Below, piece after piece: positions 3,452 through 59,086 of a stretch of 64,000 bases of DNA. Below the pieces are notes generated by a model that did not search any database, was not told the DNA's origin, and worked only from the letters and a program-made list of their open reading frames with translations. Position numbers and translations under genes: made by a program. How positions within the stretch are numbered: position 1 is the first letter of the stretch; each line of letters starts with the position of its first letter. The DNA comes from an uncultured Dehalococcoidaceae bacterium (lineage in GTDB: Bacteria; Chloroflexota; Dehalococcoidia; UBA2979): contig CAZMCK010000002.1 of NCBI GenBank assembly GCA_964565075.1, positions 27,603 through 91,602 of the forward strand, given 5' to 3'.

Positions 3452-3591
3452 CGCGCGCCTCCTTCGTGTGTTCGGTGGGTCTTGGCATCATCGTACGTGG
3501 CGCGGGCACGCGGGCATAGCCAGCGGCTCAGAGGGCCGGGGATGCAGGCAACAGCAGTGGTTCGGGGCTCTCTGGTGGCGTCTCCCCCGTA

Positions 3592-3608: not shown

Positions 3609-3700
3609 CGGAAATCGGGAACCTTATAGGCGTGGGGTGGCGTACCCTGCGCGATGGCGCGCGCCCGAAGACGTGCGTCGCAGTCGGGAAGGGGAAGCGT

Positions 3701-4594: not shown

Positions 4595-4595
4595 G

Positions 4596-5066
4596 TTGGC
4601 CAACCAGATCATCTCCGCCACCATCAACGGTGAGCCCATGGAGTTCCTCGCCGACACCCGCGACAGCCTCCTCGAGGCGCTGCGCGAGCGCATCGGCCTC
4701 ACGGGGACCAAGGAAGGCTGTAACGACGGCAACTGCGGCGCGTGCTCGGTCATCATGGACGGCCGGCTCGTGAACTCCTGCCTCGTCATGGCCGCCGAGG
4801 CCGACGGCTCGGACGTCACGACCGTCGAGGGCCTCGCCACCGAGGACGGGCTGATCCCGCTGCAGCAGACCTTCCTGGAGGAGGCGGCCCTGCAGTGCGG
4901 CATCTGCACGCCGGGCTTCCTCGTCGCCTCCAAGGCGCTGCTCGACGCCAACCCGAACCCGACAGAGTTCGAGGCGCGGTACTGGCTCGCCGGCAACCTC
5001 TGCCGGTGCACGGGCTACGACAAGATCATCCGCGCGGTCCTCAGGGCTGCTGAAGTCGAGGCCTAG
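4596..5066 (+). CDS. molybdenum hydroxylase [2Fe-2S] small subunit (CoxS family)
   Basis: TTG at 4596, 1 nt after the coxM-like stop, with a GGGAGGG ribosome-binding site. Product MANQIISATINGEP.. carries cysteine motifs CNDGNCGACSV and CGICTPG...CRCTGY. Confidence 0.9.
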   Translation: MANQIISATINGEPMEFLADTRDSLLEALRERIGLTGTKEGCNDGNCGACSVIMDGRLVNSCLVMAAEADGSDVTTVEGLATEDGLIPLQQTFLEEAALQCGICTPGFLVASKALLDANPNPTEFEARYWLAGNLCRCTGYDKIIRAVLRAAEVEA

Positions 5067-5076
5067 GCCTCGCATC

Positions 5077-5102
5077 GGACGGCCGCCGCGAGGCGGCCGT
5101 CC
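5077..5102 (+). promoter_or_regulatory. intra-operon stem-loop between the small and large Mo-hydroxylase subunit genes
   Basis: GGACGGCCGCC-GCGA-GGCGGCCGTCC: an 11-bp perfect stem with a GNRA-type loop, 11 nt after the small-subunit stop and 33 nt before the large-subunit GTG. Confidence 0.5.
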
Positions 5103-5134
5103 TGCATCCAACCACACGCACGAAGGAGACCTGA

Positions 5135-7423: not shown

Positions 7424-7458
7424 CACTCCGCGCGTGAGCGCGAGCGACACGCTACAAA

Positions 7459-7490
7459 CACTGGCGGCGCCCAACCGGGCGCCGCCAGTG
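7459..7490 (+). terminator. perfect 14-bp-stem hairpin between the two large-subunit paralogs
   Basis: CACTGGCGGCGCCC-AACC-GGGCGCCGCCAGTG, 36 nt after the stop of paralog 1. Confidence 0.55.
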
Positions 7491-7558
7491 CTATGTGTGG
7501 GGCTTCCTCGCGGTGTCGCGGCGCGGCATACAGGGCGGGCACGCTCGGCCCTGCGGTA

Positions 7559-7564
7559 TACAAT
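7559..7564 (+). promoter_or_regulatory. TACAATCG -10-like box 39 nt upstream of large-subunit paralog 2 (internal promoter candidate)
   Basis: GGTATACAATCGCGCC. The same octamer precedes both double-domain CoA-transferase genes at the same distance. Confidence 0.4.
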
Positions 7565-7602
7565 CGCGCCGAAGCCGATCCCCGCGCCCTGGGAGGTTCG
7601 CC

Positions 7603-9897
7603 GTGGTCACCACCGAGAAGCCCGAGTACCGCGTCGTCGGAACGAGGCCGCTCCGGCCGGACGGCGCCGACAAGGTGACCGGACGCGCGCAGTACGGCGT
7701 CGACGTCTCGCTGCCCGGCATGCTATACGGCCGCGTGCTGCGCAGCCCCCACGCGCACGCTCGCATTCTCAGCGTCGACACCTCGAAGGCCGAGGCGCTC
7801 GACGGCGTCCGCGCCGTCGCCACCTTCGCCGACCTGCCGATCGATGACGAGGAGACCGTCGTCGACATCGGCGAGGGCGCGGCCGAGGGGCGCTGGATGG
7901 CGCGGCTCGTCTTCGCCGACGACAAGGCGCTCTTCAAGGGCCATGCCGTGGCCGCCGTCTGCGCCACCGATCCCCACATCGCCGAGGACGCCCTCGAACT
8001 GATCGAGGTCGAGTACGAGCCACTGCCGGTCGTCCTCGATGCGCGCGAGTCCATGGACGAGAACGCGCCGCTGCTGCACCCCGACCTGCTCACCGAGGAA
8101 GTCGCGGGCTTCGGCGTCGGCGACGTCTCCACGGCGCGGCCGTCGAACATCGGCAAGCACTGCGAGTTCGCAATCGGTGACGTGGACGCCGGGTTCGAGG
8201 AGGCCGAGATCATCCTCGAGCGCGAGTTCGAGACCTCGGCGTACCACCAGGGCTACATCGAGGCGCAGAACGGCGCGGCGATGTGGAACCCGGACGGCGA
8301 GCTGACCGTGTGGGTGAGCAGCCAGGGCCCGTTCGTGGTCCGCGCGCAGCTGGCGCAGCTGCTCGACATGCCGCTCAGCAAGGTGAAGGTCGTGCCGATG
8401 GAGATCGGCGGCGGCTTCGGCGGCAAGATCCCCGTCTACATGGAGCCGATGGCCGCGATCATGTCGAAGAAGACCGGTCGCCCGGTCAAGATGTACATGA
8501 CGCGGCAGGAGGTCCTCGAGTCCACCGGCCCCACGCCGGGCTCGTGGGTGCGGGCGAAGATCGGCGCGAAGCGCGACGGCACGCTCGTCGCCGCCGACGT
8601 GGCGCTGGCGTTCGAGTCGGGCGGGTTCCCGGGCTCGGCGTTCGTGGCCGGTGCGCGCTGTGCACTCGGGCCGTACGACATCCCGAACATGCACGTCGAG
8701 GGCTGGGACGTCGTCGTCAACAAGCCGAAGGTCGCCGCGTACCGCGCGCCCGGCGCCCCGCAGACGGAATTCGCCGTCGAGTCGCTGATGGACGAGCTCG
8801 CCGAGGTGCTTGAGCGCGACCCGATGGAGCTGCGCTACCAGAACGCCGCCGGCCAGGGCACGCGTCTCGTGGACGGCACGGCGCTCGGCGTGGTCGGCAA
8901 CACGCAGGTCATGGACGCGATCACGCAGAGCGACCACTACCGCTCCGAGCTGCAGGGCGAGAACCGCGGCCGCGGCGTCGCGATGGGCTTCTGGGGCAAC
9001 GGCGGCATGGAGACGAGCGCGCTCGCGAACGTCAACGCCGACGGCACCGTGAGCCTCGTCGTCGGCACCGTCGACATCGGCGGCCTGCGTGCGACGCACG
9101 CGATGCAGCTCGCCGAGACGCTCGGCCTCTCATACGAGGAGGTGCACCCGAAGGTCGTCGACACAGACAGCGTCGGGATGACCTCGGTGACAGGCGGGAG
9201 CCGCAGCACGTTCGCCGGCGGCTGGGCGATGCACGAGGTCGGCATGGACCTCCGCCGCCAGCTCGAGGCGCGCGCCGCGCAGATCTGGGAGGTCGACGCC
9301 GACGACGTGACGTACGGCGACGACGCCGTCATCCGCGGCCCCGCCGATGGCGACGAAGCGCGCAGCATGACGTTCGGTGAGCTGGCCGGCCAGCTCGCGA
9401 TGACCGGCGGGATGATCCAGGGCAGCGCCTCGGTGCGGCCGGAGACCGTCGGGCCGACCTTCGCGGGCCACATCGTGGACGTCGAGGTGGACCCGGAGAC
9501 CGGCAAGGTCGACGTGCTCCGCTACACGGCCGTGCAGGACGTGGGTACCGCCATCCACCCCTCGTACGTCGAGGGGCAGATCCAGGGCGGCGCGCTACAG
9601 GGTGTGGGCATGGCGCTGACCGAGGAGTACTTCTACGACGACGACGGCGTGATGCGGAACTCGAGCCTGCTCGACTACCGCATGCCGACGGCGCTCGACA
9701 CGCCGATGATCGACGCGGTGCTCGTCGAGGTGCCGAACCCCGGCCACCCCTACGGGGTGCGAGGGGTCGGCGAGGTGCCGATCGTGCCGCCGCTGGCGGC
9801 CGTCGCCAACGCGATCCACGATGCGGTGGGCGTGCGCATGGCGAAGCTGCCGGCCACGCCGCGCGCAATCCTCGAGGAGTTGGAGCCGGACGCCTAG
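7603..9897 (+). CDS. molybdenum hydroxylase large subunit, paralog 2 (tandem duplicate)
   Basis: Internal GTG of ORF 7495..9897, preceded by GGAGG, giving MVTTEKPEYRVVGTRP.. in parallel with paralog 1 (MVTTDKPEYKVVGTRP..). 764 aa, same AYRAPGAP loop. Near-identical C-terminal blocks (AGHIVDVEVDPETGKVDVLRYTAVQDVGTA). Confidence 0.9.
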   Translation: MVTTEKPEYRVVGTRPLRPDGADKVTGRAQYGVDVSLPGMLYGRVLRSPHAHARILSVDTSKAEALDGVRAVATFADLPIDDEETVVDIGEGAAEGRWMARLVFADDKALFKGHAVAAVCATDPHIAEDALELIEVEYEPLPVVLDARESMDENAPLLHPDLLTEEVAGFGVGDVSTARPSNIGKHCEFAIGDVDAGFEEAEIILEREFETSAYHQGYIEAQNGAAMWNPDGELTVWVSSQGPFVVRAQLAQLLDMPLSKVKVVPMEIGGGFGGKIPVYMEPMAAIMSKKTGRPVKMYMTRQEVLESTGPTPGSWVRAKIGAKRDGTLVAADVALAFESGGFPGSAFVAGARCALGPYDIPNMHVEGWDVVVNKPKVAAYRAPGAPQTEFAVESLMDELAEVLERDPMELRYQNAAGQGTRLVDGTALGVVGNTQVMDAITQSDHYRSELQGENRGRGVAMGFWGNGGMETSALANVNADGTVSLVVGTVDIGGLRATHAMQLAETLGLSYEEVHPKVVDTDSVGMTSVTGGSRSTFAGGWAMHEVGMDLRRQLEARAAQIWEVDADDVTYGDDAVIRGPADGDEARSMTFGELAGQLAMTGGMIQGSASVRPETVGPTFAGHIVDVEVDPETGKVDVLRYTAVQDVGTAIHPSYVEGQIQGGALQGVGMALTEEYFYDDDGVMRNSSLLDYRMPTALDTPMIDAVLVEVPNPGHPYGVRGVGEVPIVPPLAAVANAIHDAVGVRMAKLPATPRAILEELEPDA

Positions 9898-9927
9898 CGT
9901 CCGCGAACCTGGGCCGGGAGGCAGGAG

Positions 9928-10191
9928 ATGGCGAAAGTCTTCGTACCCGCGCTGATGCGCAAGCTGTCCAACGAGGAGCCGGTGGTCGACATACCCGGGA
10001 ACACGCTGCGCGAGGTGGTCAACAACCTCGACGATGCGTACCCGGGCATGAAGGACCTGATCATCGAGAACGGCCGCGTGCGGCCAGGCCTCGCGCTCGC
10101 CGTCGACGGTGTCATGTCGGCGACGGGGCTGATGGCGAAGGTGCCCGAGGACGGCGAGGTGCACATCCTGCCCGCCATCGGGGGCGGGTAG
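9928..10191 (+). CDS. MoaD/ThiS/CysO-family sulfur-carrier protein (C-terminal GG)
   Basis: 87 aa ending ...ILPAIGGG. Overall resemblance to CysO/MoaD beta-grasp carriers. GGGAGG ribosome-binding site. Confidence 0.7.
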   Translation: MAKVFVPALMRKLSNEEPVVDIPGNTLREVVNNLDDAYPGMKDLIIENGRVRPGLALAVDGVMSATGLMAKVPEDGEVHILPAIGGG

Positions 10192-10443
10192 ACCGCCGCT
10201 CCCCCGACAACCCGAGGGGCCTCGATCCGGGCCTGTGACGCTGATCGGTGCGCCTCCCAGTGACGCCGCCGGGTCGTGAGCGCGACTCGCGGTCGTGTTA
10301 TGTGCCCCTCGTAGCGCACCGCTCATGGCGTGGGCCGTTCTGCTAGACTGCGCCGCGACAGGAGCCGCTCCGCGGGCAGGTGCCCCGCGTTGCGGGGAAT
10401 CGCGGGCGGCTACCCGCACGAGGCACGACGCAGGAGGTGCAGA

Positions 10444-11391: not shown

Positions 11392-12006
11392 CTAGTCGCC
11401 GAGGATGGTGTCGTAGCCGAGCGAGCGGATCTCCTCGACGTACTCGGCGCGCCACCCGGCGGCGGGGATGCGGCGGCGCAGGCTGCGGAACTCGGCGTGG
11501 TAGCGGAGGTACTCCTCCTCCAGGCGCCGACGCCACGCCGCCTCCTCGCGGGCCGCGTCCGGCGCGACCTCCTCGAAGGGGAGCTCGAACTGGTCCTCGG
11601 TGAGGTCGTACTCGTCACGCCAGTACTCGGCGAGGTAGTCGAGCGAGTCTTCCAGGTCGCGCCGGCAGTCCAGCATGTAGGTCTCGAGGAGTTGCCCGGC
11701 GTCGGCGAGGGTGCCGCGCAGGCGCTCGCTGCGCGCGCAGTCAACGCAGAGCGTGGTGAGCTTGCGCGCCTCGCAGGCGTCACCGCGCGGGCAGTTCTGG
11801 TGGCGGGGGGCAAACGGGGAGAGCGACGGCTTTCGCGAGTACCCGACGACGAGTGCATCGCAGTCGGCCTCACAGCGCGGGCAGGTGAGGCGACGCGCGA
11901 AGATCTGGTTGATCGCGTTCTCCCAGTCGATCTGCACGCCGCACGCTCCGATCAGTGGATGCTGCTCCGGCCGAGCGACGTTCCGTGGGTGGCCGCGAGC
12001 CGTCAA
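11392..12006 (-). CDS. hypothetical Cys-rich protein (putative zinc-binding)
   Basis: 204-aa ORF. Cysteine clusters CPRCEADC, CPRGDAC and CVDCARSE, followed by an acidic C-terminal half. The start codon is uncertain. Confidence 0.45.
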   Translation of the reverse strand: MTARGHPRNVARPEQHPLIGACGVQIDWENAINQIFARRLTCPRCEADCDALVVGYSRKPSLSPFAPRHQNCPRGDACEARKLTTLCVDCARSERLRGTLADAGQLLETYMLDCRRDLEDSLDYLAEYWRDEYDLTEDQFELPFEEVAPDAAREEAAWRRRLEEEYLRYHAEFRSLRRRIPAAGWRAEYVEEIRSLGYDTILGD

Positions 12007-12061
12007 TCGATGGTACGCGGGGCGCGAGAACTGTCAACGCGAGCGGGAGCGCTCTGGTGGG

Positions 12062-12592
12062 CTACGCCCGGACCGCCTCGATCCACCCCGGAGCCAGGTC
12101 GCGGCTGTAGCGGCCGCTCTGCCCCGGCATCTCCTCGATCTCCACCTCGATGCGCGTGAGGTTGCCGTGCTCACCCGCCGCCAGCGAGGCGAGCACGCGC
12201 CCGGCGACCCACTCCGCGAGCAGCTCTGCCGTGCTGTTCTCGATGGGCAGTGCGACGACGTCGCTCGCCGGGAAGCGGTAATCGCGGTCGCCGAAGCCGA
12301 CCGTCCAGCCGGCAGCGTCCTCGGTGATGTCGAGGAGGCGCGAGTCATGCTGGAGCAGGAAACGGTGGTCCAGCTCCTCGCACGCCTCGCGGACGGCGCG
12401 CTTGAGCACGCTGAAGTCGATGACCCACCGGTCGTCGGTGAGGGCGCCGTCGACACGGCAGCTTGCGATGTAGTTGTGCCCGTGGAGCGGCTCGAGGTCG
12501 TCGCCGAGCGTCGCCATGTGCGCTGCGGCGAAGCGCAGCCGGACGCCCTGGACGGTGACGGAGCGGGAGACGTCGAGGATGTCGTCAGTCAT
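12062..12592 (-). CDS. 6-pyruvoyl-tetrahydropterin synthase / QueD-family protein
   Basis: Internal ATG (MTDDILDV..) of ORF 12062..12850. PTPS motifs FAAAHM and LHGHNY plus a conserved Cys. GAGGA ribosome-binding site. Confidence 0.7.
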   Translation of the reverse strand: MTDDILDVSRSVTVQGVRLRFAAAHMATLGDDLEPLHGHNYIASCRVDGALTDDRWVIDFSVLKRAVREACEELDHRFLLQHDSRLLDITEDAAGWTVGFGDRDYRFPASDVVALPIENSTAELLAEWVAGRVLASLAAGEHGNLTRIEVEIEEMPGQSGRYSRDLAPGWIEAVRA

Positions 12593-12633
12593 GCGGTCCT
12601 CGGTTGCTGTGTCCAGCCCGGCGCTACATAACA

Positions 12634-12659
12634 GAATGGCAGCCGTTCGGCTGCCATTC
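12634..12659. terminator. perfect 12-bp-stem hairpin downstream of the ferredoxin-oxidoreductase operon
   Basis: GAATGGCAGCCG-TT-CGGCTGCCATTC, immediately adjacent to the CTACATAACAG repeat. Confidence 0.55.
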
Positions 12660-12716
12660 CAGTTGTGCGCTGCGAGGTGAGCGACGGGCGCGCGTGGCGC
12701 CCGCTGCTCCGCTCGT

Positions 12717-20774: not shown

Positions 20775-20871
20775 GCGCATACTGAACGGGTAGTTATGTC
20801 CCGTCCCTGCCCTCCGGGTTCCACCCGGGGGGTGCGGGCGCGTGGCGACGATGAGGGTGAGGACGGGCGCG

Positions 20872-21366
20872 GTGGCGAAGCGCTCCTCGAAGAAGAAGCA
20901 GCCCGAGCTGCGCGAGGGTGGCACCATCGCGACGAACCGTCGCGCCCGCTACGACTACAGCATCGAGGGGACCTACGAGGCCGGCCTGGTCCTCACCGGC
21001 TCCGAGATCAAGTCGATACGCTCCGGCCGCGCCGACATCGCCGAAGGCTTCGCGCGCTTCGAAGGCGGCGAGCTGTGGCTGCATAACGTGCACATCGCCC
21101 CCTACGCGCCCGCCGGGGTGAACCATGAGCCGCTGCGGACCCGCAAGCTGCTCCTGCACCGCAACGAGCTCGAGCGCCTGGAGCGGGCGCTGCGCGAGCA
21201 GCCCGGGATGACCATCGTCCCGCTGCGGCTCTACCTGGCGCGCGGACTGGCGAAGGTCGAGATCGGCCTCGCGCGTGGCCGCCGACGCTACGACAAGCGC
21301 CAGGCGATCGCGAAGCGCGAGGCGGAACGGACCATGCAGCGGGCGATGCGACGGGACGCGCGCTAG
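20872..21366 (+). CDS. smpB: SsrA-binding protein SmpB
   Basis: ORF 20842..21366. The GTG at 20872 (8 nt after GAGGA) yields a 164-aa product of canonical SmpB length. Motifs IATNRRARYDY and TRKLLLH. Starts at 20842, 20851 or 20857 remain possible. Confidence 0.85.
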   Translation: MAKRSSKKKQPELREGGTIATNRRARYDYSIEGTYEAGLVLTGSEIKSIRSGRADIAEGFARFEGGELWLHNVHIAPYAPAGVNHEPLRTRKLLLHRNELERLERALREQPGMTIVPLRLYLARGLAKVEIGLARGRRRYDKRQAIAKREAERTMQRAMRRDAR

Positions 21367-21409: not shown

Positions 21410-21766
21410 TGGGGACGAAAGGGGTCGACAGCGGTTAACGGACACGGTTTGCGGGTCGAGGCGCCACCAACCTCGTAAAACAGGTGGCACCTTCATAACA
21501 GGCGATAACGAACTCGCCCTCGCCGCTTAGACAGCGGTGACGTTGTCCCCGGCTCTCGCCTGGCGAGCCGGGAGACAGCGCCGAAATGCCGGGCTGCAAT
21601 CGCGGGCGCGCGTCACAGGCCTCGCGACCAAGACTACTGCGACTGGCCGGCAGCCTCCCTCGTCAGCGCAGGGATGCCGGTGAGAACCCGCCGCTGACTA
21701 CGCCCGTAGCAGATCCGTGACGAAGGCTTGCTGGACGGGGAGTTCAATTCTCCCCCGTCTCCACCA
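21410..21766 (+). ncRNA. ssrA: tmRNA (ssrA)
   Basis: 5' GGGGACGAAAGGGGTCGAC pairs with 3' ...CGTCTCCACCA to form a 7-bp acceptor stem. T-arm GGACGGGGAGTTCAATTCTCCCCCGTC. Internal tag reading frame ...GGC GAT AAC GAA CTC GCC CTC GCC GCT TAG (..NELALAA*). Lies directly after smpB. Confidence 0.85.
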
Positions 21767-29551: not shown

Positions 29552-29872
29552 CTAATGGATGGCCTGCTCGACGGCCTCGGTCAGCCAGGCGTTGAGGCTC
29601 TTGCCCCGGGCGCGCGCGGTCTCGGTGGCGGCGCGATGGAGGTCCGGACCGATCCTCAGCGGGATGTTGCCGGAGTACGCCTTGTCAGGGGTGCGCCCGC
29701 GCTCGGCGCATACCTGCAGGTACTCGTCCACCGACGCGGCGAACGCCTCGCGCAACTCCGGCACCGACGTCCCCTGGAACGTGATCACGTCGCGGGTCCC
29801 CACCACCTCGCCGTGGAACAGCTCGGCGTCGTCGTCGAACACGACAGTGGCGCGGTATCCCTGGTACTCCAT
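29552..29872 (-). CDS. hicB: type II antitoxin HicB
   Basis: 106 aa, HicB fold with a C-terminal RHH-like segment. Directly downstream of the hicA-like gene. Confidence 0.75.
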   Translation of the reverse strand: MEYQGYRATVVFDDDAELFHGEVVGTRDVITFQGTSVPELREAFAASVDEYLQVCAERGRTPDKAYSGNIPLRIGPDLHRAATETARARGKSLNAWLTEAVEQAIH

Positions 29873-31957: not shown

Positions 31958-32263
31958 TTACGTCGTGTCGACTGGGTCGATTGAGGTGAGTCGGTCGCCC
32001 AGGCGGTCCTCGGCGAGTTCGAGGTCGTACTGGTTCTGCAGGCCCATCCAAAAGCGCGCGCTGGTACCGAAGTAGCGGGAGAGGAGCAGCGCGGTTTCCG
32101 CGGTGATGGACCGCTCGCCATGGACGATGGCGTGGATGCGTCGCGCGTCGACGCCGATCGCCTTCGCCAGGCGGTACTGCGTGATCTCCATCGGCCGCAG
32201 GAACTCCTCGTCGAGGATCTCTCCGGGGTGGATGGATGGGAGGGTGCGGTCCGTTGTCGTCAT
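31958..32263 (-). CDS. higA: type II antitoxin HigA (XRE-type HTH)
   Basis: Internal ATG (MTTTDRTLPSIHPGEIL..) of ORF 31958..32353. HigA-family HTH. Confidence 0.7.
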   Translation of the reverse strand: MTTTDRTLPSIHPGEILDEEFLRPMEITQYRLAKAIGVDARRIHAIVHGERSITAETALLLSRYFGTSARFWMGLQNQYDLELAEDRLGDRLTSIDPVDTT

Positions 32264-32286
32264 TTCGATCTCACGCTCTGTTCCTG

Positions 32287-32577
32287 CTAATCGTAGTCCA
32301 CGATCTCTACCCCGTGGGCTTCTCCGTCGATCCAGACGAAGCAGCTCCGCCACTGGTGGTTGATCCTGATGCTGTGTTGGCGTCGCCGATCGCCAGAGAG
32401 TGCCTCGAGGCGATTGCCCGGTGCGGCTCTGAGGTCGTTCAGGTCGTCAGCGCTATTCAGCATCATGAGTTTCCGCTGCGCACGGCGCTGGATGTCGGGC
32501 GGGAGCCTCCGCGCGCGGCGTCCCTCGGTAAGGGCACGGGCGTCGGGATCTCTGAAGCTCGCGATCACGACATCCAC
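32287..32577 (-). CDS. higB: type II toxin HigB (RelE/ParE superfamily killer protein)
   Basis: 96 aa, killer-protein family pattern (...NRLEALSGDRRRQHSIRINHQWRSCFVW...VEIVDY). Confidence 0.7.
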   Translation of the reverse strand: MDVVIASFRDPDARALTEGRRARRLPPDIQRRAQRKLMMLNSADDLNDLRAAPGNRLEALSGDRRRQHSIRINHQWRSCFVWIDGEAHGVEIVDYD

Positions 32578-32670: not shown

Positions 32671-33300
32671 ATGCGAGTAGGTCTCATCTCGGATACGCAT
32701 CTCCCCTCCCTCATCCGCCACCTCGACGGGCTCGGGCCGGAGCCCGCCGCCTTCCTCGAGACCGTCGACTTGATCCTGCACGCGGGTGACATCAGCACCC
32801 GCACCGTGCTCGACTGGTGCGAGCAGTTCGCGCCGGTCCTCGCCGCGCGCGGCAACCACGACGTCTTCGACGACCCACGGCTCGCCGAACGCCAGGTCGT
32901 GGAGCTCGAGGGCTGGCGCATCGGCATGACCCACGACCTGCGGCCGCGCACTGCGCCGCCCGTAGACCTGGCCGCGCTGCACTTCGGCGGCGCCGAGCTG
33001 GACGTGATGGTCGGGGGCGACACGCACGTCGAGTGGCTCGAGTACCGCGACAGCGTGCTGCTGGTGAACTCCGGCAGCCCGAACCTGCCGCACAACAAGG
33101 AGACGCGGCTCGGCACCGTCGGGCTGCTCGAACTCGAGCGCGGCCGGCTGCGGGCCGAGATCCTGACGCTCGGCGAGACGGATGGGCGACCAAACCCCGG
33201 TAGCCGCCAGCACGTCGAGATCGAGGGTGGCCGCCTCATCGGGAGCTCGTACAGGGACGACCACACCGCCGAGCCGCCGCGCGCCGCCTTGCGAGGCTAG
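32671..33300 (+). CDS. metallophosphoesterase (YfcE/MJ0936 family)
   Basis: 209 aa with GDxH, GNHD and GHTH-like motifs (ISDTHLP, HAGD, GNHD, GDTHV). Confidence 0.75.
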   Translation: MRVGLISDTHLPSLIRHLDGLGPEPAAFLETVDLILHAGDISTRTVLDWCEQFAPVLAARGNHDVFDDPRLAERQVVELEGWRIGMTHDLRPRTAPPVDLAALHFGGAELDVMVGGDTHVEWLEYRDSVLLVNSGSPNLPHNKETRLGTVGLLELERGRLRAEILTLGETDGRPNPGSRQHVEIEGGRLIGSSYRDDHTAEPPRAALRG

Positions 33301-33336
33301 CGGCCCCAGCCGGGTGCGGCCTTCGGCTCTCCCAGG

Positions 33337-33354
33337 GTTCTGACACACGGCGCC
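33337..33354 (+). promoter_or_regulatory. conserved motif GTTCTGACACAC-N-GCGCC, copy 2 (upstream of the SSF symporter)
   Basis: See copy 1. Lies 52-61 nt upstream of the symporter start. Confidence 0.5.
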
Positions 33355-33405
33355 TCCATCGCTAACCTCATTCGTGATTGAGACGACGTAGCCCCGTCGA
33401 CGGGA

Positions 33406-34911
33406 GTGGTCCTGGTGTTCAGCCCCGTGGTCGTTGCGGTCTTCGTCGGCTACTTCCTCGCGCTGGTCGGCATCGCCATCGTGCGGGCGCGGCGCATGAA
33501 CGCCATGTCGGACTACGTGCTCGGCGGGCGGCGCATGAGCAGCCTCACCTCGGGCCTCAGCGCGAGCGTCTCGACGACGAGCGGATGGACGATGCTGGCG
33601 CTGCCGGCGCTCGCCTTCACCGGGGGCGCGAACATCCTCTGGCTCGTCGGCTTCCTCGCCGTGGGTGTCTGGCTCAACTGGACGCTGGTGGCGAAGCGGC
33701 TGCGACGCTACACGATTGCCGCCGAGGACTCTCTGACCGTGCCCGAGTTCTTCGAGCGCCGCTTCGCGGACGGCAGCGGGGCGGTGCGCGCCGTGGCGGC
33801 AGTGCTCACGATCTTCTTCATCGTCTTCTACACCAACTCGGGCCTCATCGCGGGCGCCGAGCTGCTCGGCTCGGTGTTCGAGATCGACCTCAATCCCGGG
33901 ATCTGGATCACGCTCTTCGCCGTCGCCTCGTACACGTTCATCGGCGGCTTCCTCGCCGTGTCGCGGACGGACGTGTTCCAGGCCGTGCTGATGCTGGCGG
34001 GCTTCATCATCATCCCGCTCACGCTGTTGTTCCTCGCCGACGACCCGTTCGGCGAGGTGGGCGACCAGCCGGGGTTCTTCAACCCCTTCACCGACCCACA
34101 GGGCGAGGTCGTGACGCCGGTGTATCTCATCGGCCTCGCAGGCTGGGGTCTCGGCGCCTTCGGTTCTCAGCGCGTGCTGCAGCGCTTCATGGCGGTGGAG
34201 AGCGAGGCCAAGATCGACGAGAGCCGCAACATCTCCGCGGCGTGGATCATCGGCATCTACGCGCTGAGCTTCCTGCTGGGGCTGCTGGCCCATCCCGCGC
34301 TCGAGGCGGCGGGGATCGAGACGACGGACCCCGAGCAGGTCTACTTCGCGGTCGTGGACCACTTCTTCCCGGCGTTGATCGGCGCGCTGCTGCTCTCGGC
34401 GGTCATCGCTGCCGTCATGAGCACGGCCGACTCCCAGCTGCTGCTCGCCTCGGCGGTCGCGTCGAACGACCTGCCGTACGTTCGACGCATCAGCGCGGCC
34501 CTCGACACGCGACGCCAGGTCTGGCTGGGCCGCGCCTGGCTGGTCGTCGTCGGCCTCTTCTCCGGCGTGCTCACGGTCGCGTTCCCTGACTCGATCCTCA
34601 ACCTCGTGGCGTACGCGTGGGGCGGGATGGGCGCGGCCTTCGGGCCGGTAGTGCTGCTGGCGCTCTACTGGCGGCGGTTCAACGCGGCGGGGGCGCTGGC
34701 GGGCATGCTCGCGGGGTTCGGAGTGGCCACGCTCTGGCAGTTCGGCCTCGAGGGCGGCCCGCAGGGCGTCTTCGACATCATGCCCGCCTCGCCAGGGTGC
34801 ATCGCCGGAACCGCCGCGGCGATCGTCGTGACGCTCCGGACCGCGCCGCCGGCCGCGCACGTCCTCGCCACGTTCGACGAGGTCGCAGGGCGCGCAGCGG
34901 CCCGCCCCTGA
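33406..34911 (+). CDS. sodium:solute symporter family (SSF) transporter
   Basis: 501 aa with about 13 TM helices, PutP/SSF family. Start may instead be the GTG at 33415. Confidence 0.85.
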   Translation: MVLVFSPVVVAVFVGYFLALVGIAIVRARRMNAMSDYVLGGRRMSSLTSGLSASVSTTSGWTMLALPALAFTGGANILWLVGFLAVGVWLNWTLVAKRLRRYTIAAEDSLTVPEFFERRFADGSGAVRAVAAVLTIFFIVFYTNSGLIAGAELLGSVFEIDLNPGIWITLFAVASYTFIGGFLAVSRTDVFQAVLMLAGFIIIPLTLLFLADDPFGEVGDQPGFFNPFTDPQGEVVTPVYLIGLAGWGLGAFGSQRVLQRFMAVESEAKIDESRNISAAWIIGIYALSFLLGLLAHPALEAAGIETTDPEQVYFAVVDHFFPALIGALLLSAVIAAVMSTADSQLLLASAVASNDLPYVRRISAALDTRRQVWLGRAWLVVVGLFSGVLTVAFPDSILNLVAYAWGGMGAAFGPVVLLALYWRRFNAAGALAGMLAGFGVATLWQFGLEGGPQGVFDIMPASPGCIAGTAAAIVVTLRTAPPAAHVLATFDEVAGRAAARP

Positions 34912-42239: not shown

Positions 42240-42644
42240 TCAGGTCCGCGCGTCGATGCGGTCCATCTCGCCGGGCCACTCGAGGAGCCGCTCGTCGGCG
42301 GTCAGCAGCCGGCAGTCGTCGAGCGTGAGCGCCGTGGCGGCGATGATCCGGTCGGCGGGGTCGCCGTGCATGTCGGGGATCTCGCCCGCGAGCGTGGCGA
42401 TCTCAGCGGTCACCCCGACCTCTCCCAGGCCGGTGGCGCGCAGGCCCGCTCGCCAGCCCAGCACGTCGCGCGTCACCCCCACGCGGCCCTTGCGCTGCAG
42501 CATCGCGACTTCCCAGAACGTAATGGTTGAGACCGCGGCCTCGCCGTCCGGCCAGGCCCGATCGAGCAATGCGCGAGCCCGCCGCCCCAGGTCACGGGTG
42601 TCGAGATGCATCCAGACCAGCACATGGGTATCGAGCAGGATCAC
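42240..42644 (-). CDS. vapC: PIN-domain toxin (VapC-like)
   Basis: 134 aa starting MILLDTHVLVW, PIN fold. Confidence 0.8.
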   Translation of the reverse strand: MILLDTHVLVWMHLDTRDLGRRARALLDRAWPDGEAAVSTITFWEVAMLQRKGRVGVTRDVLGWRAGLRATGLGEVGVTAEIATLAGEIPDMHGDPADRIIAATALTLDDCRLLTADERLLEWPGEMDRIDART

Positions 42645-42653
42645 GGGCGCCGG

Positions 42654-42977
42654 TCAGGGATTGAGCACGCGGTCCGGGTCGGCAAGCACGTCTATCTCGT
42701 CCTCATCCATGGGGCTGATGATGTCCCCGAGGATGCGGATCTGACCCTTGCCGGCGCCCCACGGCGCCTTGCGCGGGTGCTGATACGGCGTCAACTTCGC
42801 CACAGGCTCCCCCCGCTTCATGATGATGACCTCCCGGCCGGTCTCGGCGACCTCATCCATGAGTTGCAGGCATTTTGCCTTGAACTCGGACGCCTTGATG
42901 AACCGCCGCGTGCTGTACACGCCAACGAACTCCCTGATCAAGGAGCCCCTCGGTTCCTCTTGCTCAACCATGGTCAT
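42654..42977 (-). CDS. Phd/YefM-family antitoxin
   Basis: ORF 42654..43004; start could be M1, M10 or M12. Phd/YefM-like (...YSTRRFIKASEFKAKCLQLMDEVAETGREVIIMKRGEPVAKLTP). Confidence 0.7.
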   Translation of the reverse strand: MTMVEQEEPRGSLIREFVGVYSTRRFIKASEFKAKCLQLMDEVAETGREVIIMKRGEPVAKLTPYQHPRKAPWGAGKGQIRILGDIISPMDEDEIDVLADPDRVLNP

Positions 42978-43089
42978 GACTATAGTGCCATCTCCCGGGG
43001 TCATGCAAGCCCCCGCGCCACCGTGCGGAGCCTAGCTCCGGGGGCTGGTAGGCTCGTTTGAACCTCTGACGAGACTGGAGCTTTCGCGA

Positions 43090-52293: not shown

Positions 52294-54726
52294 GTGCCTG
52301 ACACCGCACTGGACGGTCTCCGCATCATCGAGCTCGCCGAAGGGGTGGCCGGCCCCTACTGCGGCAAGCTCTTCGCCGACCTCGGCGCCGACGTCATCAA
52401 GGTCGAGCCGCCCGAGGGCGACCGCACGCGCCGGGAGGGCCCGTTCAAGGACGGGGTACCCAACCCGGAGGGCAGCGGGCTCTTCCTCTACCTCAACACC
52501 AACAAGCGGGGCGTCACCGCCGACGTGACCACGGACGAGGGCCGCGAGGCCCTCCTCGGCCTGCTCGCCGGCGCTGACGCGCTCGTCACCGACATGCACG
52601 AGGACGACCTGCGCGCACTCGGGCTCGACTACGCCGACCTGCGCGAGCGCTTTCCAGCCCTCGTCTTCTCCTCGCTCACGCCGTTCGGCCGTGGCGGCCC
52701 GCACGGCGCGTACCGGGGCAATGCGTTCCTCGCGTACCACGCCAGCGGGATGAGCTGGGAGACGCCGACGAACCAGGTGCGCGACCCGGCCACCCAGCCA
52801 CCCCTCGCGCCCGGGAACCCGCAGGCCGACTACCTCACGGGCTCCACCGGGGCCGCCGCGACGCTGGCCGCGATCTTCCAGCGCGAGTCGACCGGCCGTG
52901 GGCAGCTCGTCGACATCTCCGGGCAGGAGGCGAACGCCAACCACATCCGCACGACGATCTCATCCGTGATCCACACGCCCGACCTCGTTCCGGGTCGCGA
53001 GAAGAGCAACTTCGACTTCCTCGTGCCGTGTAGTGACGGTTATGTCTTCCTCACCCCGTACAACTTCGACCACTGGTGGGAGCGCCTCCAGCACCTCATG
53101 GGCGACCCGGAGTGGGCGAAGAGCGAGGCCTTCGCCACCACGGCCGACCGCGCCCTCAACTGCGACGCGATCGAGCCGCTCGTGGCCCTCTGGTCGGCGG
53201 AGCACACCCGCGCGGAGCTGTACCAGATGTCGCTCGACATCGGGATCCCGTGCTTCCCGGTGTACTCGCCCGCCGAGATGATGGAGTCGGCGCAGTTCGC
53301 GTTCCGCGACTTCCTCGAGTCCGTCGAGGACCCCGAGGCGGGCTCGTTCGTCCGCCCGGGCCCGGCAGCGCTGCTCTCGCGGACGCCGTACCGGCAGGAC
53401 AGGCGCGCGCCGCGTCTCGGCGAGCACAACGCCGAGTTGCTCGCGCAGCCCGCCGCCGAGCCCTCGCCCGCGCCGCCCGGCGACCAGCGACCCGAGTACC
53501 GCAGGGGCACGGGCAACCTGCCGCTGAGCGGGGTGCGCGTGGTCGACTTCGGGTGGATCCTCTCCGTCCCGCACTCGACGGCCTGGCTGGGCACACTTGG
53601 CGCCGAGGTGATCCGCGTCGAGTCCGAGCAGCGCCTCGACCTGCTGCGCGCCATGGGCATGCAGCGCGGCTCGAGCGGGATTCACGGGCTCAACCGCTCG
53701 GGGCCGTTCAACGGCCTCAACTACAGCAAGCACGGCGTGACGCTGAACCTCCAGACCGACCGCGGCAAGGAGCTCGCGAAGGAGCTGATCAGCCGCGCCG
53801 ACATCGTCACGATGAACTACGCGGCCGGGGTGGCCGAGCGACTCGGCCTCGGCTACGAGGACCTCACGGCCATCAAGCCCGACCTCATCATGCTGTCGGG
53901 CTCCCCCCTCGGGCAGACCGGGCCGGAGGCGCACTCGACCGGCTGGGGCCCGACGACGCTCGCCTACACGATGCTGCCGTATATCACCGGCTACCGCGGC
54001 GGGACGCCCAGCTCGATGGGCGGCTCCTACCCGGACTTCGTCGTCGGCGTGCACATGGCGTTCGCCATGATGAGCGCGCTGCGCCACCGTGAGCGCACCG
54101 GCCACGGCCAGCACATCGATGTCGCGATGGGCGAGACCGTCGTGGCGATGACGCCCGAGCCGCTCCTGCAGTGGACGATGCTCGGCGTCGACCCGGTGAT
54201 GCTCGGCAACCGCGATCCCGGGTGCGCGCCGCAGGGCGCCTACCCGTCGGCCGGCGAGGACCGCTGGGTCGCCGTCTCCGTCGAGGACGACGCGATGTGG
54301 GCGCGGCTGCGAGGCGCCCTCGGCGACCCCGCGTGGGCGCGGGACCCCGGGCTCGAGACCCTCGAGGGCCGGCACGCGCGCCACGACGACATCGACCGTG
54401 AGCTCGGCGCCTGGACCGCCCAGCGCACTGCGTACGAGGCCGCTGACGCACTCCAGCGCGCCGGCGTGGCGGCCACGGCCGTGCTCGACGCGGCGGGGCT
54501 CCTCGACGACCCGCAGCTTCGCCACCGCGGCTTCTTCGTGGACATCGACCATCCCGAGATCGGGGTGACCGCGTCCGCGGGCATCCCGGTGCGCTTCAGC
54601 GAGACGCAGCTCCACTACGGTTCGGCGCCGCTGCTGGGCGAGCACAACCGCGAGGTGTTCACGGAGCTCGTCGGCCTCGAGGCGGCGGAGTTCGAGCGGC
54701 TTGCCGCGGAGGACGTGATCGTCTAG
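52294..54726 (+). CDS. double-domain CoA-transferase family III (CaiB/BaiF) fusion protein, copy 1
   Basis: 810 aa. GTG after a GGGAGGGA ribosome-binding site. Two complete CaiB-type modules in tandem (N-termini LRIIELAEGVAGPYCGKLFADLGADVIKVE and VRVVDFGWILSVPHSTAWLGTLGAEVIRVE). Confidence 0.85.
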   Translation: MPDTALDGLRIIELAEGVAGPYCGKLFADLGADVIKVEPPEGDRTRREGPFKDGVPNPEGSGLFLYLNTNKRGVTADVTTDEGREALLGLLAGADALVTDMHEDDLRALGLDYADLRERFPALVFSSLTPFGRGGPHGAYRGNAFLAYHASGMSWETPTNQVRDPATQPPLAPGNPQADYLTGSTGAAATLAAIFQRESTGRGQLVDISGQEANANHIRTTISSVIHTPDLVPGREKSNFDFLVPCSDGYVFLTPYNFDHWWERLQHLMGDPEWAKSEAFATTADRALNCDAIEPLVALWSAEHTRAELYQMSLDIGIPCFPVYSPAEMMESAQFAFRDFLESVEDPEAGSFVRPGPAALLSRTPYRQDRRAPRLGEHNAELLAQPAAEPSPAPPGDQRPEYRRGTGNLPLSGVRVVDFGWILSVPHSTAWLGTLGAEVIRVESEQRLDLLRAMGMQRGSSGIHGLNRSGPFNGLNYSKHGVTLNLQTDRGKELAKELISRADIVTMNYAAGVAERLGLGYEDLTAIKPDLIMLSGSPLGQTGPEAHSTGWGPTTLAYTMLPYITGYRGGTPSSMGGSYPDFVVGVHMAFAMMSALRHRERTGHGQHIDVAMGETVVAMTPEPLLQWTMLGVDPVMLGNRDPGCAPQGAYPSAGEDRWVAVSVEDDAMWARLRGALGDPAWARDPGLETLEGRHARHDDIDRELGAWTAQRTAYEAADALQRAGVAATAVLDAAGLLDDPQLRHRGFFVDIDHPEIGVTASAGIPVRFSETQLHYGSAPLLGEHNREVFTELVGLEAAEFERLAAEDVIV

Positions 54727-54759
54727 CCGCCGATCGTGCAGGGGCCTCTCCGACCCGCC

Positions 54760-54765
54760 TACAAT
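54760..54765 (+). promoter_or_regulatory. TACAATCG -10-like box 46 nt upstream of CoA-transferase gene 2
   Basis: Duplicated together with the GGGAGGGACTCGTG start context. Confidence 0.4.
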
Positions 54766-54810
54766 CGGTTCCCCCAACACCGGGAGGGAGCAACACGGCG
54801 GGAGGGACTC

Positions 54811-57243
54811 GTGCCTGACACCGCACTCAACGATCTCCGCATCATCGAACTCGCCGAGGGGGTGGCCGGCCCCTACTGCGGCAAGCTCTTCGCCGACCTC
54901 GGCGCCGACGTCATCAAGGTCGAGCCGCCCGGAGGCGACCGCGCCCGCCGGGCGGGCCCGTTCAAGGACGGCGAACCGAACCCCGAGGGCAGCGGGCTCT
55001 TCCTCTACCTCAACACCAATAAACGCAGCGTCACCGCCGACCTCGACACCGACGAGGGCCGCGACGCCGTGCTCAGCCTCCTCGCGGGCGCCGACGTGCT
55101 GGTCACCGACCGGTACGAGGACGACCTGCGCGCGCTCGGGCTCGACTACGCCGACCTGCGCGAGCGTTTCCCCGCGCTCGTCTTCACGTCGCTGACCCCG
55201 TTCGGGCGAGGCGGACCGCACGGGTCGTACCGGGGGAACGCGTTCACCGTGTACCACTCGAGCGGCCTCGGCTGGGAGACGCCTGCGCAGCAGGTGCGCG
55301 ACCCGGCCAACCAGCCGCCCCTCGCACCCGGCAACCCGCAGGCCGACTACTTCACGGGCGTGACCGGAGCGGCGGCGACGATGGGCGCGCTCTACCAGCG
55401 CGAGTCCTCGGGCCGCGGGCAACTCGTCGATATTTCGGGGCAGGAAGCGAACGCCAACCACGTGCGGCTGACGATCTCCTCGGTCGTACACACGCCCGAT
55501 CTCGTCCCGGGGCGAGCGAAGGGCAACTTCGACTTCCTCGTGCCGGCCAGGGACGGTTATGTCTTCCTCACCCCGTACAACCTCGACCACTGGTGGGAGC
55601 GCTTCCAGTCGATCATGGGCAACCCCGACTGGGCGGCGAGCGACGCCTTCCTGACGGCCGAGGACCGCGGCCTCAACTGCGACGCGATCGAGCCGCTGGT
55701 CAATATGTGGTCGACGCAGCACACACGGGCCGAGCTGTACCAGATGGCGCTCGACATCGGCATCCCGTGCTTCCCGGTCTACTCCCCCGCCGAGATGATG
55801 GAGTCGGCCCAGTTCCAGTCCCGCGGGTTCCTCGAGACCGTCGAGGACCCCGAGGCCGGTTCGTTCGTGCGGCCCGGGCCGGCTGCAGTGTTCTCCGCGA
55901 CCCCGTCCAGCCAGGACGGCCGCGGGCCTCGCCTCGGCGAGCACAGCGCCGAGCTGCTCTCACAGCCCTCCTCGGAGGCGGCTCCCGCACCGTCCGGCGA
56001 CCGCCGCCCTGCGCACCGCAAGGCGGCCGGCGACCTGCCGCTGAGCGGCGTGCGCGTCGCCGACTTCGGGTGGATCCTCTCCGTCCCGCACTCGACGGCC
56101 TGGCTGGGCGCCCTCGGCGCCGAGGTGATCCGCATCGAGTCGGAGCAGCGCCTGGACCTGCTGCGCACGATGGGCCTGACTCGCGGCTCCGGCGGCATCC
56201 CCGGCATCGAGCGGTCCGGCAACTACAACGGGCTCAACTACTCGAAGCAGGGCGTGACGCTCAACATCCAGACGGACCGCGGCAAGGAGCTCGCGAAGGA
56301 GCTCGTGAGCCGCAGCGACATCGTCACCATGAACTTCGCGGCCGGGGTCGCCGAGCGCCTCGGCCTCGGCTATGAGGACCTCAAGGCGGTGAAGCCCGAC
56401 GTGATCATGATGTCCGGCTCGCCCCTCGGGCAGACCGGCCCGGAGAGCCACTCGACGGGCTGGGGTCCGACGACGCTTGCCTACACCACGCTGCCCTACG
56501 TCACGGGCTACGAGGGCGGCACGCCGAGCTCGATGGGCGGCGCCTACCCCGACTTCGCCATCGGCGTGCACATGGCGTTCGCGATGATGAGCGCGCTGCA
56601 CTACCGCGACCGCACGGGCCACGGCCAGCACATCGACGTCGCGATGGGCGAGACGGTCGTGGCGATGACGCCCGAGCCACTCCTCGAGTGGACGATGCTC
56701 GGCGCCGACCCGCAGCGGCGCGGGAACCGCGACCCGAACCGCGCGCCGCAGGGCGTGTACCCCTCGGCGGGCGAGGACCGCTGGGTGGCGATCTCGGTGG
56801 AGGACGACGCCGCGTGGGCAGCGCTCCGGAGCGCCCTCGGCGACCCCGCGTGGGCACAGGACGCCGCACTCGCGGCGCTCGACGGCCGGCTTGCGCGGCA
56901 CGACGACATCGACCGCGAGCTCGCCGCCTGGACCGGCGCGCGCACCTCCCACGAGGCGATGCACCTGCTCCAGGCCGTGGGCGTTGCGGCTGTGGCCGTC
57001 CTCGACGGCCCCGAACTCGTCGCCGACCCGCAGTTGAGGCACCGCGGCTTCTTCGTCGACATCGACCACCCGGAGCTGGGCGTGACGGCGTCGGCGGGCA
57101 TCCCGCTCTCGTTCAGCGAGACGCAACTCCACTATGGCTCCGCGCCGCTGCTCGGCCAGCACAACCGCGAGGTCTTCACTGAGCTGGTCGGCCTTGAGCC
57201 CGAGGAGTTCGAGCAACTCGTGCGGGACTCGGTTATCGTCTGA
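54811..57243 (+). CDS. double-domain CoA-transferase family III fusion protein, copy 2 (tandem duplicate, ~88% aa identity)
   Basis: Internal GTG (VPDTALNDLRIIELAEG..) of ORF 54736..57243 with the identical GGGAGGGACTC GTG context. 810 aa. Confidence 0.85.
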   Translation: MPDTALNDLRIIELAEGVAGPYCGKLFADLGADVIKVEPPGGDRARRAGPFKDGEPNPEGSGLFLYLNTNKRSVTADLDTDEGRDAVLSLLAGADVLVTDRYEDDLRALGLDYADLRERFPALVFTSLTPFGRGGPHGSYRGNAFTVYHSSGLGWETPAQQVRDPANQPPLAPGNPQADYFTGVTGAAATMGALYQRESSGRGQLVDISGQEANANHVRLTISSVVHTPDLVPGRAKGNFDFLVPARDGYVFLTPYNLDHWWERFQSIMGNPDWAASDAFLTAEDRGLNCDAIEPLVNMWSTQHTRAELYQMALDIGIPCFPVYSPAEMMESAQFQSRGFLETVEDPEAGSFVRPGPAAVFSATPSSQDGRGPRLGEHSAELLSQPSSEAAPAPSGDRRPAHRKAAGDLPLSGVRVADFGWILSVPHSTAWLGALGAEVIRIESEQRLDLLRTMGLTRGSGGIPGIERSGNYNGLNYSKQGVTLNIQTDRGKELAKELVSRSDIVTMNFAAGVAERLGLGYEDLKAVKPDVIMMSGSPLGQTGPESHSTGWGPTTLAYTTLPYVTGYEGGTPSSMGGAYPDFAIGVHMAFAMMSALHYRDRTGHGQHIDVAMGETVVAMTPEPLLEWTMLGADPQRRGNRDPNRAPQGVYPSAGEDRWVAISVEDDAAWAALRSALGDPAWAQDAALAALDGRLARHDDIDRELAAWTGARTSHEAMHLLQAVGVAAVAVLDGPELVADPQLRHRGFFVDIDHPELGVTASAGIPLSFSETQLHYGSAPLLGQHNREVFTELVGLEPEEFEQLVRDSVIV

Positions 57244-58226: not shown

Positions 58227-58700
58227 CTATGGCGCGGCTCCGTTGCTCTCGTCAGAGGCGACCACGGAGTCGCGCCACTCGTCGATCTCGCCGGGATCGA
58301 GGCGTGTCACTCCGGGTATCTCGTCGAAGTGCCTGTCGGCTGAGACGATCCACTCGAGCCCGAGTCGGCGCATGACAGCGACGTGGACGAGGTCCCGCGA
58401 GTTGATGCGCTGATGCTCTTCGGCTAGTGCGATGGCCGCCTCGACGTCCTGCGCAAACACCGGCTCTACCCGGCTGCGCATCAGAGTGGCGAACCCCTCC
58501 AGTACTTCACGCCCGGCCGCCCACTGCTCCGGCGAGAGGTATCGATGGAGCAACTCTTGCAACACCTCGACGCTCGTCATGAACGAGCGGGGATGCAACG
58601 CGGCCAGCCCCAGCACCTCGCGAGCGGGCGCACGATAGCGATGCGCGCCGCCCGCCGCGTACATCGGGACGTTCGCGTCAATGAAGGTCGGGGGGCTCAT
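58227..58700 (-). CDS. vapC: PIN-domain toxin VapC
   Basis: 157-aa C-terminal part of ORF 58227..58952 (MSPPTFIDANVPMYAAGG...), PIN fold. Confidence 0.7.
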   Translation of the reverse strand: MSPPTFIDANVPMYAAGGAHRYRAPAREVLGLAALHPRSFMTSVEVLQELLHRYLSPEQWAAGREVLEGFATLMRSRVEPVFAQDVEAAIALAEEHQRINSRDLVHVAVMRRLGLEWIVSADRHFDEIPGVTRLDPGEIDEWRDSVVASDESNGAAP

Positions 58701-58929
58701 AGCGCTCTTCAAGCTCGTTGCACAGGTCCGCCGGATCGTCCGGCACATCCAGCTCAACGCTGGTGATGCGGCGCACCGCCGAGAGGCGCCGCTCCAGCGT
58801 GATCGTCTCCCACGCGTCGTCGATGAGGCGACGCACCAGTTCGGAGACGGGGACGTCCCGCTCCCTGGCGATCTCATCCAACCGCCGCCGACGCTCTTCG
58901 TCCAGTCGGACCTCGAGTCGAGAGACCAT
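58678..58929 (-). CDS. vapB: ribbon-helix-helix antitoxin VapB (CopG family)
   Basis: M12 of ORF 58678..58962 (MVSRLEVRLDEERRRRLDEIARERDVPVSELVRRLI), RHH fold. Overlaps the vapC start. Confidence 0.65.
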   Translation of the reverse strand: MVSRLEVRLDEERRRRLDEIARERDVPVSELVRRLIDDAWETITLERRLSAVRRITSVELDVPDDPADLCNELEERYEPPDLH

Positions 58930-59086
58930 GATGCCTCCTGTCCGGCACCCACCGTACGGCACGCCTCGTACGGCCTAGATTGTACGGCACGATCCGTACG
59001 GTATGCGATACCCGGATGAGCGCACCGGTCGATCTGCCATACTCGCGCACGGCCCAGGCAACGCGACGCAGGCCGAGGAGGACAAC

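Follow-up and report, generated by a model that had tools for sequence, protein, structure and literature searches.

An 18-bp word conserved upstream of a Mo-hydroxylase operon recurs at the predicted promoter of a symporter gene in an uncultured Chloroflexota genome

The stretch of DNA analysed here, a 64,000-nucleotide window from an uncultured Dehalococcoidaceae bacterium, carries the same 18-bp word upstream of a Mo-hydroxylase operon (copy 1) and upstream of the gene for a PutP-like sodium:solute symporter (copy 2). Copies 1 and 2 are identical at 17 of the 17 specified bases, which bears out an earlier sequence-only reading (hereafter the preliminary description) of the symporter site as a genuine second copy of the motif. 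Conservation of the word at the operon suggests that it is probably the asymmetric site of one regulator common to the operon and the symporter, encoded by a gene that would lie outside the window. Position 13 is the sole free position and differs between the two copies while the rest of the block is identical, which fits selection on contacted bases better than the copying of a tract.

The location given for copy 2 in the preliminary description was also confirmed. The word lies in the 114 nt that separate the symporter gene from a metallophosphoesterase gene (32671-33300), and its last base lies 52 nt 5' of GTG 33406, the start of the longest open reading frame, and 61 nt 5' of GTG 33415. 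The latter start is backed by the protein P0001 (498 aa, 100% identical) and by an ATG at this position in the orthologue L047. Against the NCBIfam PutP model the symporter scores 388 bits, below the 515-bit cut-off. The coordinates of the main features are collected in Table 1.

Table 1 Features of the two loci and of the third site (window coordinates)
Feature	Positions	Strand	Remark
Copy 1, GTTCTGACACACTGCGCC	3592-3609	+	upstream of the Mo-hydroxylase operon
-10-like box TACCCT	3643-3648	+	only -10-like box conserved in all operon orthologues
Mo-hydroxylase operon	3701-10191	+	Pfam, NCBIfam
FAD subunit	3701-4594	+	
2Fe-2S subunit	4554-5066	+	
Mo large subunits, two full-length	5135-7423 and 7495-9897	+	
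ThiS/MoaD-like protein	9928-10191	+	ends in GG
Copy 3, GTTCTGCTAGACTGCGCC	10337-10354	+	14/17 match; profile E 0.33
TTCGGCTCTCC element	33322-33332	+	4 nt before copy 2; flank alignment at chance level
Copy 2, GTTCTGACACACGGCGCC	33337-33354	+	exact match to the pattern GTTCTGACACAC-N-GCGCC
-35-like hexamer CTGACA	33340-33345	+	inside copy 2; 5/6 to TTGACA
-10-like hexamer TAACCT	33363-33368	+	predicted symporter promoter; 17 nt after CTGACA
Symporter ribosome-binding site GGGAG	33402-33406	+	
SSF sodium:solute symporter, PutP-like, 498 aa	33415-34911	+	Pfam SSF 1e-74

Conservation of the word at the operon

The intergenic region that holds copy 1 is divergent, with a gene set for a small membrane protein, an FMN reductase and a hypothetical protein on its minus-strand side. 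We compared this region with orthologous regions at increasing distance. The motif is exact in L017 and L040 (intergenic alignment 89% identical) and in L056-59 (FAD subunit 93% identical). It reads GTTCTGACAaACTGCctC in L062-64 (FAD subunit 95% identical; 15/18 in L062) and GTTCTGcCACAC-TT-GCGCC in L060/61 (84%), and it reads GTTCTGACACACTGCGCg in L145 (71%; 17/18) and GTTaTGcCACACTGCGCg in L066 (65%; 15/18). Between distant orthologue pairs the 18 core positions are 83-94% identical, as against 27-47% in the 30-nt flanks, which is the background level; in L145, 17 of the 18 bases are kept within otherwise unrelated sequence. As judged from these alignments, copy 1 is a real conserved cis-element whose phylogenetic footprint extends down to 65-71% protein identity.

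Besides the motif, the only block kept in every operon orthologue is TA[CTG][CG]CT-GCGCG, which looks like a predicted -10 box followed by the start region. The hexamer that represents it in the window begins 51 nt after the start of copy 1. Measured from the motif, TAnnCT lies at 50-52 nt in most orthologues, at 48 nt in L066 and at 54 nt in L145; in L143/L144, which have other sequence in place of the right half of the motif, the distance falls to 17 nt. No -35 partner for the operon TAnnCT was found, since the best match 16-18 nt upstream reached at most 3 of 6 positions in 11 out of 11 orthologues.

Several further features of this upstream region were recorded. TA[CTG][CG]CT-GCGCG is its most conserved block (orthologues L060, L065, L066 and L142-L145), and 3' of it lies a short GC hairpin with a variable loop, GCGCG-ATGG-CGCGC in the window (block region 3643-3665). 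In L066 the block reads ATGCTGCGCGCCGT and matches the right half of the 18-mer, ACACTGCGCGCCGT, at 13/14 positions, almost as a direct repeat, so that a second, promoter-proximal site for the same protein is a possibility there. The L145 orthologue has a much longer leader of about 125 nt, which holds a second partial motif, GGTTCTGGGACGCG (about 8900-8925). On the far side of the region, CATCGTACG (3488-3496) and GGCATAG (3513-3519) are invariant in all close and intermediate orthologues; the former contains TACGAT on the minus strand, which is likely the -10 box of the divergent operon for the small membrane protein and the FMN reductase.

The closest solved structure to the operon large subunit is that of 4-hydroxybenzoyl-CoA reductase alpha (1rm6). 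Synteny of the operon is conserved in L056-61 and L142-145. In L056-59 a variable insert of ~1 kb (about 11700-12700) with small open reading frames splits the two large-subunit genes, and on one of these contigs it carries GmrSD and HEPN genes; L060/61 are without the second large subunit and without the enoyl-CoA hydratase. The GC content of the window is about 70% throughout, and the window is rich overall in CoA-dependent catabolic genes. Two adjacent genes (52294-54726, 810 aa, and 54736-57243, 835 aa) comprise two family-III CoA-transferase stretches each, and are surrounded by many enoyl-CoA hydratases, an MFS transporter and an acyl-CoA dehydrogenase. Elsewhere in the window an SmpB gene (20842-21366) is directly followed by tmRNA (21411-21766, Rfam 134 bits).

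The word at the symporter promoter

The two hexamers at the symporter listed in Table 1 place copy 2 on the -35 box and the spacer of a predicted sigma-70 promoter, where it would span about -38 to -21. In the four syntenic symporter orthologues that could be aligned across the gap (the window, L047, L048 and L146) TAAYCT is invariant, and a -35-like hexamer is found 17-18 nt upstream of it in each, reading CTGACA in the window, CTGACG in L047, CTAACG in L048 and TTACCA in L146. The pattern [TC]TGAC[AG]-N16-18-TAnnnT has two matches in the 64 kb, both intergenic. The second near-consensus match, TTGACA-N16-TACCAT at 12037 (minus), lies upstream of an open reading frame (11392-12006) for a 204-aa protein without a family match. 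A sigma-70 arrangement with a conserved -10 hexamer was thus seen at copy 2 (CTGACA-N17-TAACCT) and not at copy 1, and a strict consensus promoter scanner called neither site; the -10 assignments for both the operon and the symporter are predictions from sequence.

The coincidence of copy 2 with CTGACA-N17-TAACCT raises the question of whether a dedicated regulator is needed at all, as the word might be no more than a -35 box with its spacer, found at two housekeeping promoters that resemble each other, and its identity a product of promoter constraints and chance. Every symporter orthologue retains the -35 position, and in close relatives a GAACCT follows copy 1 at the equivalent spacing. However, this GAACCT is not conserved (GAACCG in L040, GAGCCT in L062, GGCCCT in L060) and decays while the 18-mer stays. 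Spacers are normally unconserved, yet the word is kept in L145 (17/18) and L066 (15/18), neither of which has a -10-like hexamer 16-18 nt after it, and 17/17 identity far exceeds what two hexamers would give. We therefore consider a promoter-only explanation unlikely.

An element of an alternative sigma factor, for example of the ECF type, common to three genes (the third being the gene behind copy 3, described below) would account for a site that is asymmetric, always upstream and oriented with the downstream gene, and ATC(G/A) does occur about 23 nt after the motif start in copies 1 and 2, L062 and L060. No second element at a fixed spacing is present in L145 or L066, however, and contiguous conservation over 17-18 bp is unlike the two-box pattern of sigma factors. 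Sigma-54 promoters follow the consensus TGGCAC-N5-TTGC, with GG and GC exactly 10 nt apart, and ECF promoters have an 'AAC' -35 box. Neither the GG-N10-GC spacing nor the 'AAC' box fits the word: it has TGACAC followed by GC dinucleotides at the wrong spacing for sigma-54, copy 3 is without the box, and the boxes and spacing of the word do not fit the ECF consensus. Recognition by an alternative sigma factor is, on this evidence, distinctly unlikely.

A footprint comparable to that of copy 1 was found for copy 2 only in the closest relative. The site is exact in the window strain, including five independent Logan contigs, and matches at 15/17 in L047, the symporter of which is 96% identical. 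Logan runs SRR8304767-86 hold identical contigs, and L047 is contig_16 of ERZ25072348. It is degenerate in L048 (88%) and L146 (86%), and absent in L049 and L050, where another gene is inserted upstream. Overall it thus passes from exact in the window through 15/17 at 96% identity to degenerate or absent at 73-88% identity, a fall-off of which part is expected because the best matches were picked in the window genome. As far as these orthologues go, the symporter site is lineage-specific, and because it is exact in one strain only and decayed in relatives we regard its function as less certain than that of copy 1. Ordered by relatedness, the site reads CTAACGCCG in L048, CTGACGCTC in L047 and CTGACACAC in the window, and the last steps approach the operon consensus, in a series that comprises three lineages and is subject to ascertainment bias. 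The best reading of these data is that the symporter operator was recently acquired or sharpened.

The preliminary description had further pointed to a TTCGGCTCTCC element shortly before copy 2. It is indeed present, but as TTCGGCTCTCC/TTCGGGGCTCTC it has been retained in none of the symporter orthologues, nor has its copy-1 counterpart in any operon orthologue. The element is probably a chance occurrence and not functional.

Occurrence of the word and classes of element considered

By chance an exact second copy is expected roughly 1e-5 times (~128,000/4^17, counting 128 kb over both strands). When up to three mismatches were allowed, the window contained three matches compared with 0.41 expected from shuffled sequences, and 0 out of 100 shuffles reached three; the sites, two exact and one matching at 14/17, are all intergenic and co-oriented with the downstream gene. 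A profile HMM derived from seven copy-1 orthologues, all from outside the window, was also run against the window with all filters off. The same three sites came out on top in the 64 kb, copy 1 with an E value of 9e-23, copy 2 with 0.012 (alignment over 33331-33376) and copy 3 with the value given in Table 1. With a position weight matrix, copy 2 scored 26 bits and the three sites alone exceeded 12 bits in the window, and over 184 kb of related loci every strong match was an orthologue of one of them. Weak matches elsewhere in the related loci (11-13 bits, n = 3) lie inside the FAD-subunit gene (position 8567 in L056 and L057) and 55 nt upstream of the copy-3 orthologue (L056 15947, L057 16851). 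Another sequence resembling the motif consensus, AGTTCCGGCAGACTGCG (1450-1419, minus; profile E 0.73), is coding sequence of a Cu/Zn superoxide dismutase gene (1038-1622) and probably a chance match.

Copy 3 is located 90 nt before the start (TTG 10444) of the enoyl-CoA hydratase gene that lies 3' of the Mo-hydroxylase operon. Taken alone, with three mismatches, it is not significant (0.41 expected), and its orthologues drift from the motif, reading AGTCTGCTAGACTGCGCC in L056 (12/17) and AGTCTGCTAGAATCCGCC in L064 (10/17). What they retain is TGCTAGA(C/A)T, resembling an extended -10 box. That copy 3 stands beside the operon in an intergenic, co-oriented position is suggestive; its membership in the motif set is doubtful.

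An exact-word scan of one genome per species across 185,579 species returned 46 single matches, where roughly 70 are expected by chance. Only two of them, L017 and L040, are copy-1 orthologues; both are 'MAG: Dehalococcoidia bacterium' records of about 70% GC. An actinobacterial origin of the window, which its 70% GC might suggest, was rejected, as these two orthologues and all close protein relatives belong to Chloroflexota/Dehalococcoidia MAGs; the window therefore derives from a high-GC Chloroflexota lineage. The other 44 are scattered across phyla and chance-like, or fall in alphaproteobacterial-like coding sequence. At least nine matches (L004, L013, L014, L023, L026, L032, L033, L037 and L039) share extended flanks, which read as a conserved alphaproteobacterial gene unrelated to the element. 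Searching the literature for the word brought up nothing but unrelated primer sequences. In two relatives (OZ244720.1 and OZ242017.1) the exact word occurs once per chromosome record, at the orthologous operon, which indicates that it is not a dispersed repeat family. A REP- or MITE-like repeat was likewise rejected, given three sites in the window, nothing beyond their orthologues among the strong matches in the 184 kb of related loci, and no inverted repeats.

The repeat finder returned no inverted repeat of 8 nt or more over copy 1 or copy 2, and the consensus is asymmetric. A dyad of the kind bound by dimeric repressors (TetR, GntR, IclR, MarR or LacI type) was accordingly rejected for lack of symmetry, and the dyads GTGTC...GACAC, GTTC...GAAC and CAGTCT-GCT-AGACTG are confined to single lineages or copies and are not common to the sites.

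Both copies stand on the coding strand within about 110 nt of the start codon, as would a riboswitch or other regulatory leader RNA in the two 5' untranslated regions. Rfam gave no match, whether searched at the gathering threshold or with E values up to 1, and the five RNA folds computed were less stable than shuffled controls (z +0.5 to +1.5). Moreover, the predicted symporter transcription start is downstream of the motif, and the substitutions in L047 show no compensatory pattern. An RNA element is thus most improbable.

The copies might finally be alike without function, as the still undecayed product of a gene conversion or duplication that copied a short promoter segment. They are exactly identical in the window strain only, and there is a weak downstream extension of the similarity: ATCG-N2-AACCT-N-AT occurs at the same offset (+/-1 nt) after both, with 11 of 14 bases matching. 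With the offset fixed we estimate a probability of about 0.02 for this extension, which is borderline at best, and in unconstrained local alignment it is not significant; 1101 and 1017 out of 2000 shuffles score as well as the flanks of copies 1 and 2, the similarity of which is at chance level. Against a copied tract, the identity stops abruptly at both edges, and the mismatch at position 13 falls inside the block. The L047 site is already 15/17, so that the similarity predates strain-level divergence, and L048 and L146, which do not have the motif, do have the -10 region downstream of copy 2, so that this region is ancestral to the symporter locus. Shared ancestry without function is very unlikely in the light of these observations.

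A regulator common to both promoters and comparison with known systems

A contiguous asymmetric island, upstream of the gene, co-oriented with it and recurring at a second promoter, fits protein-binding DNA. In the explanation that we favour, a sequence-specific transcription regulator would bind the 18-mer as double-stranded DNA. Its site would be ancestral upstream of the Mo-hydroxylase operon in an uncultured, ~70% GC Chloroflexota clade labelled Dehalococcoidia. In the window genome and its closest relative the word would have come to lie also on the promoter of the PutP-like symporter gene, 30 kb away, so that the symporter would join the small regulon of the operon. At the symporter, binding at about -38 to -21 would compete with RNA polymerase and thereby repress, in a manner that a ligand might relieve. 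At the operon the centre of the site would fall about 54 bp before the predicted transcription start, on a promoter without a -35 box, where binding would help to recruit polymerase and so activate. Lack of a -35 box is the usual signature of activator dependence. The distance from motif to TAnnCT counts against this last step, as 48-54 bp in most orthologues and 17 in L143/L144 is loose for a classical activator site.

The preliminary description had raised the idea that the symporter is induced together with the operon. Since the cis-element that includes copy 1 is conserved across the phylogeny, a shared regulator remains the best explanation. It does not entail simple parallel induction: copy 2 covers the -35 box and spacer whereas copy 1 lies ~50 bp upstream of the -10-like box, and the symporter and operon promoters may respond in opposite directions. 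If the regulator represses at the one and activates at the other, its effect would depend on position and the two promoters need not move together. Taken as a whole, an operator with two modes (upstream activation at the operon, -35 overlap at the symporter) to which the symporter was recently recruited by a few point substitutions in a -35 box and spacer already present is a tentative proposal that we would hold to be possible but doubtful.

We found no metabolic transcription-factor gene among the ~60 open reading frames scanned in the 64-kb window. The only HTH protein in it is an HTH_3 protein resembling HigA-type antitoxins (31958-32353, minus), and an AsnC ligand domain without an HTH is also encoded. 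The HigB partner of the HTH_3 protein is present in L048 and was not seen in the window. Toxin-antitoxin-like genes comprise HicB, the HigA-like HTH_3 gene, a PIN gene with Phd/YefM and another PIN-domain open reading frame (loci 29552-29872, 31958-32353, 42240-43004 and 58227-58952).

To our knowledge almost nothing is known of transcription control in Chloroflexota without a cultured representative, and we know of no described regulons there. The element is most likely of an ordinary kind, an operator common to a catabolic operon and a transporter, which is new in a little-studied lineage; as a principle, one regulator serving a few promoters is equally ordinary. The 18-mer offers a handle on this system, both as a probe to pull down the regulator and as a position weight matrix with which complete MAGs could be searched for the regulon. 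Through it a specific uptake system is linked to an orphan Mo-hydroxylase, widespread among such MAGs, that has two full-length large subunits and a ThiS-like protein, and this link could help to identify the hydroxylase substrate. Should the two modes and the recent recruitment hold true, the substrate of the symporter would point to that of the orphan hydroxylase, and the locus would be a case of regulon growth caught in the act.

Three known systems were compared with the 18-mer. Like a sigma-70 promoter (-35 TTGACA, 17 nt, -10 TAnnnT), copy 2 has CTGACA 17 nt before TAACCT; unlike one, the conserved word is 18 bp long and spans the spacer, and its conservation at the operon involves no -10 partner. 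The second system is the marbox of Escherichia coli MarA, SoxS and Rob, of which class I lies about 50-70 bp upstream of the start and class II overlaps the -35 box, MarA being a monomeric activator of the AraC/XylS family that uses asymmetric sites (PMC6900184). As in the 18-mer, the marbox is an asymmetric, oriented site of ~18-20 bp without dyad symmetry, and copy 1, near -54 of a promoter without a -35 box, and copy 2, overlapping the -35 box, make up two positional classes as well. The 18-mer differs in that its sequence is unrelated to the marbox 5'-GCAHWWWWTGYYAAA-3', that copy 2 comes within 8 bp of the -10 box and so extends deeper into the spacer than a class II marbox, that its two copies point the same way, in contrast to the usual reversal of class I marboxes, and that no AraC-family domain is found in the proteins of the window. 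On sequence and regulator it falls outside the marbox family, and the analogy is one of architecture only.

The third system is the PucR regulon of purine catabolism in Bacillus subtilis, which comprises the xanthine dehydrogenase genes pucABCDE and transporter genes. PucR reportedly activates or represses depending on the position of its box relative to the promoter. The 18-mer is unrelated to the PucR box, the AT-rich WWWCNTTGGTTAA; no PucR-family protein is encoded in the window, and the enzyme of the window has its closest counterparts in 4-hydroxybenzoyl-CoA reductase and CoxL-type proteins rather than in PucD. On the strength of these analogies we would assign the regulator neither to the AraC/MarA nor to the PucR family. 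The B. subtilis PucR box is described as non-palindromic in PMC7652997, which cites Beier et al. 2002 on this point. The likeness lies in the arrangement: one regulator acting through a non-palindromic site on a Mo-hydroxylase operon together with uptake genes, as would be the case for the 18-mer.
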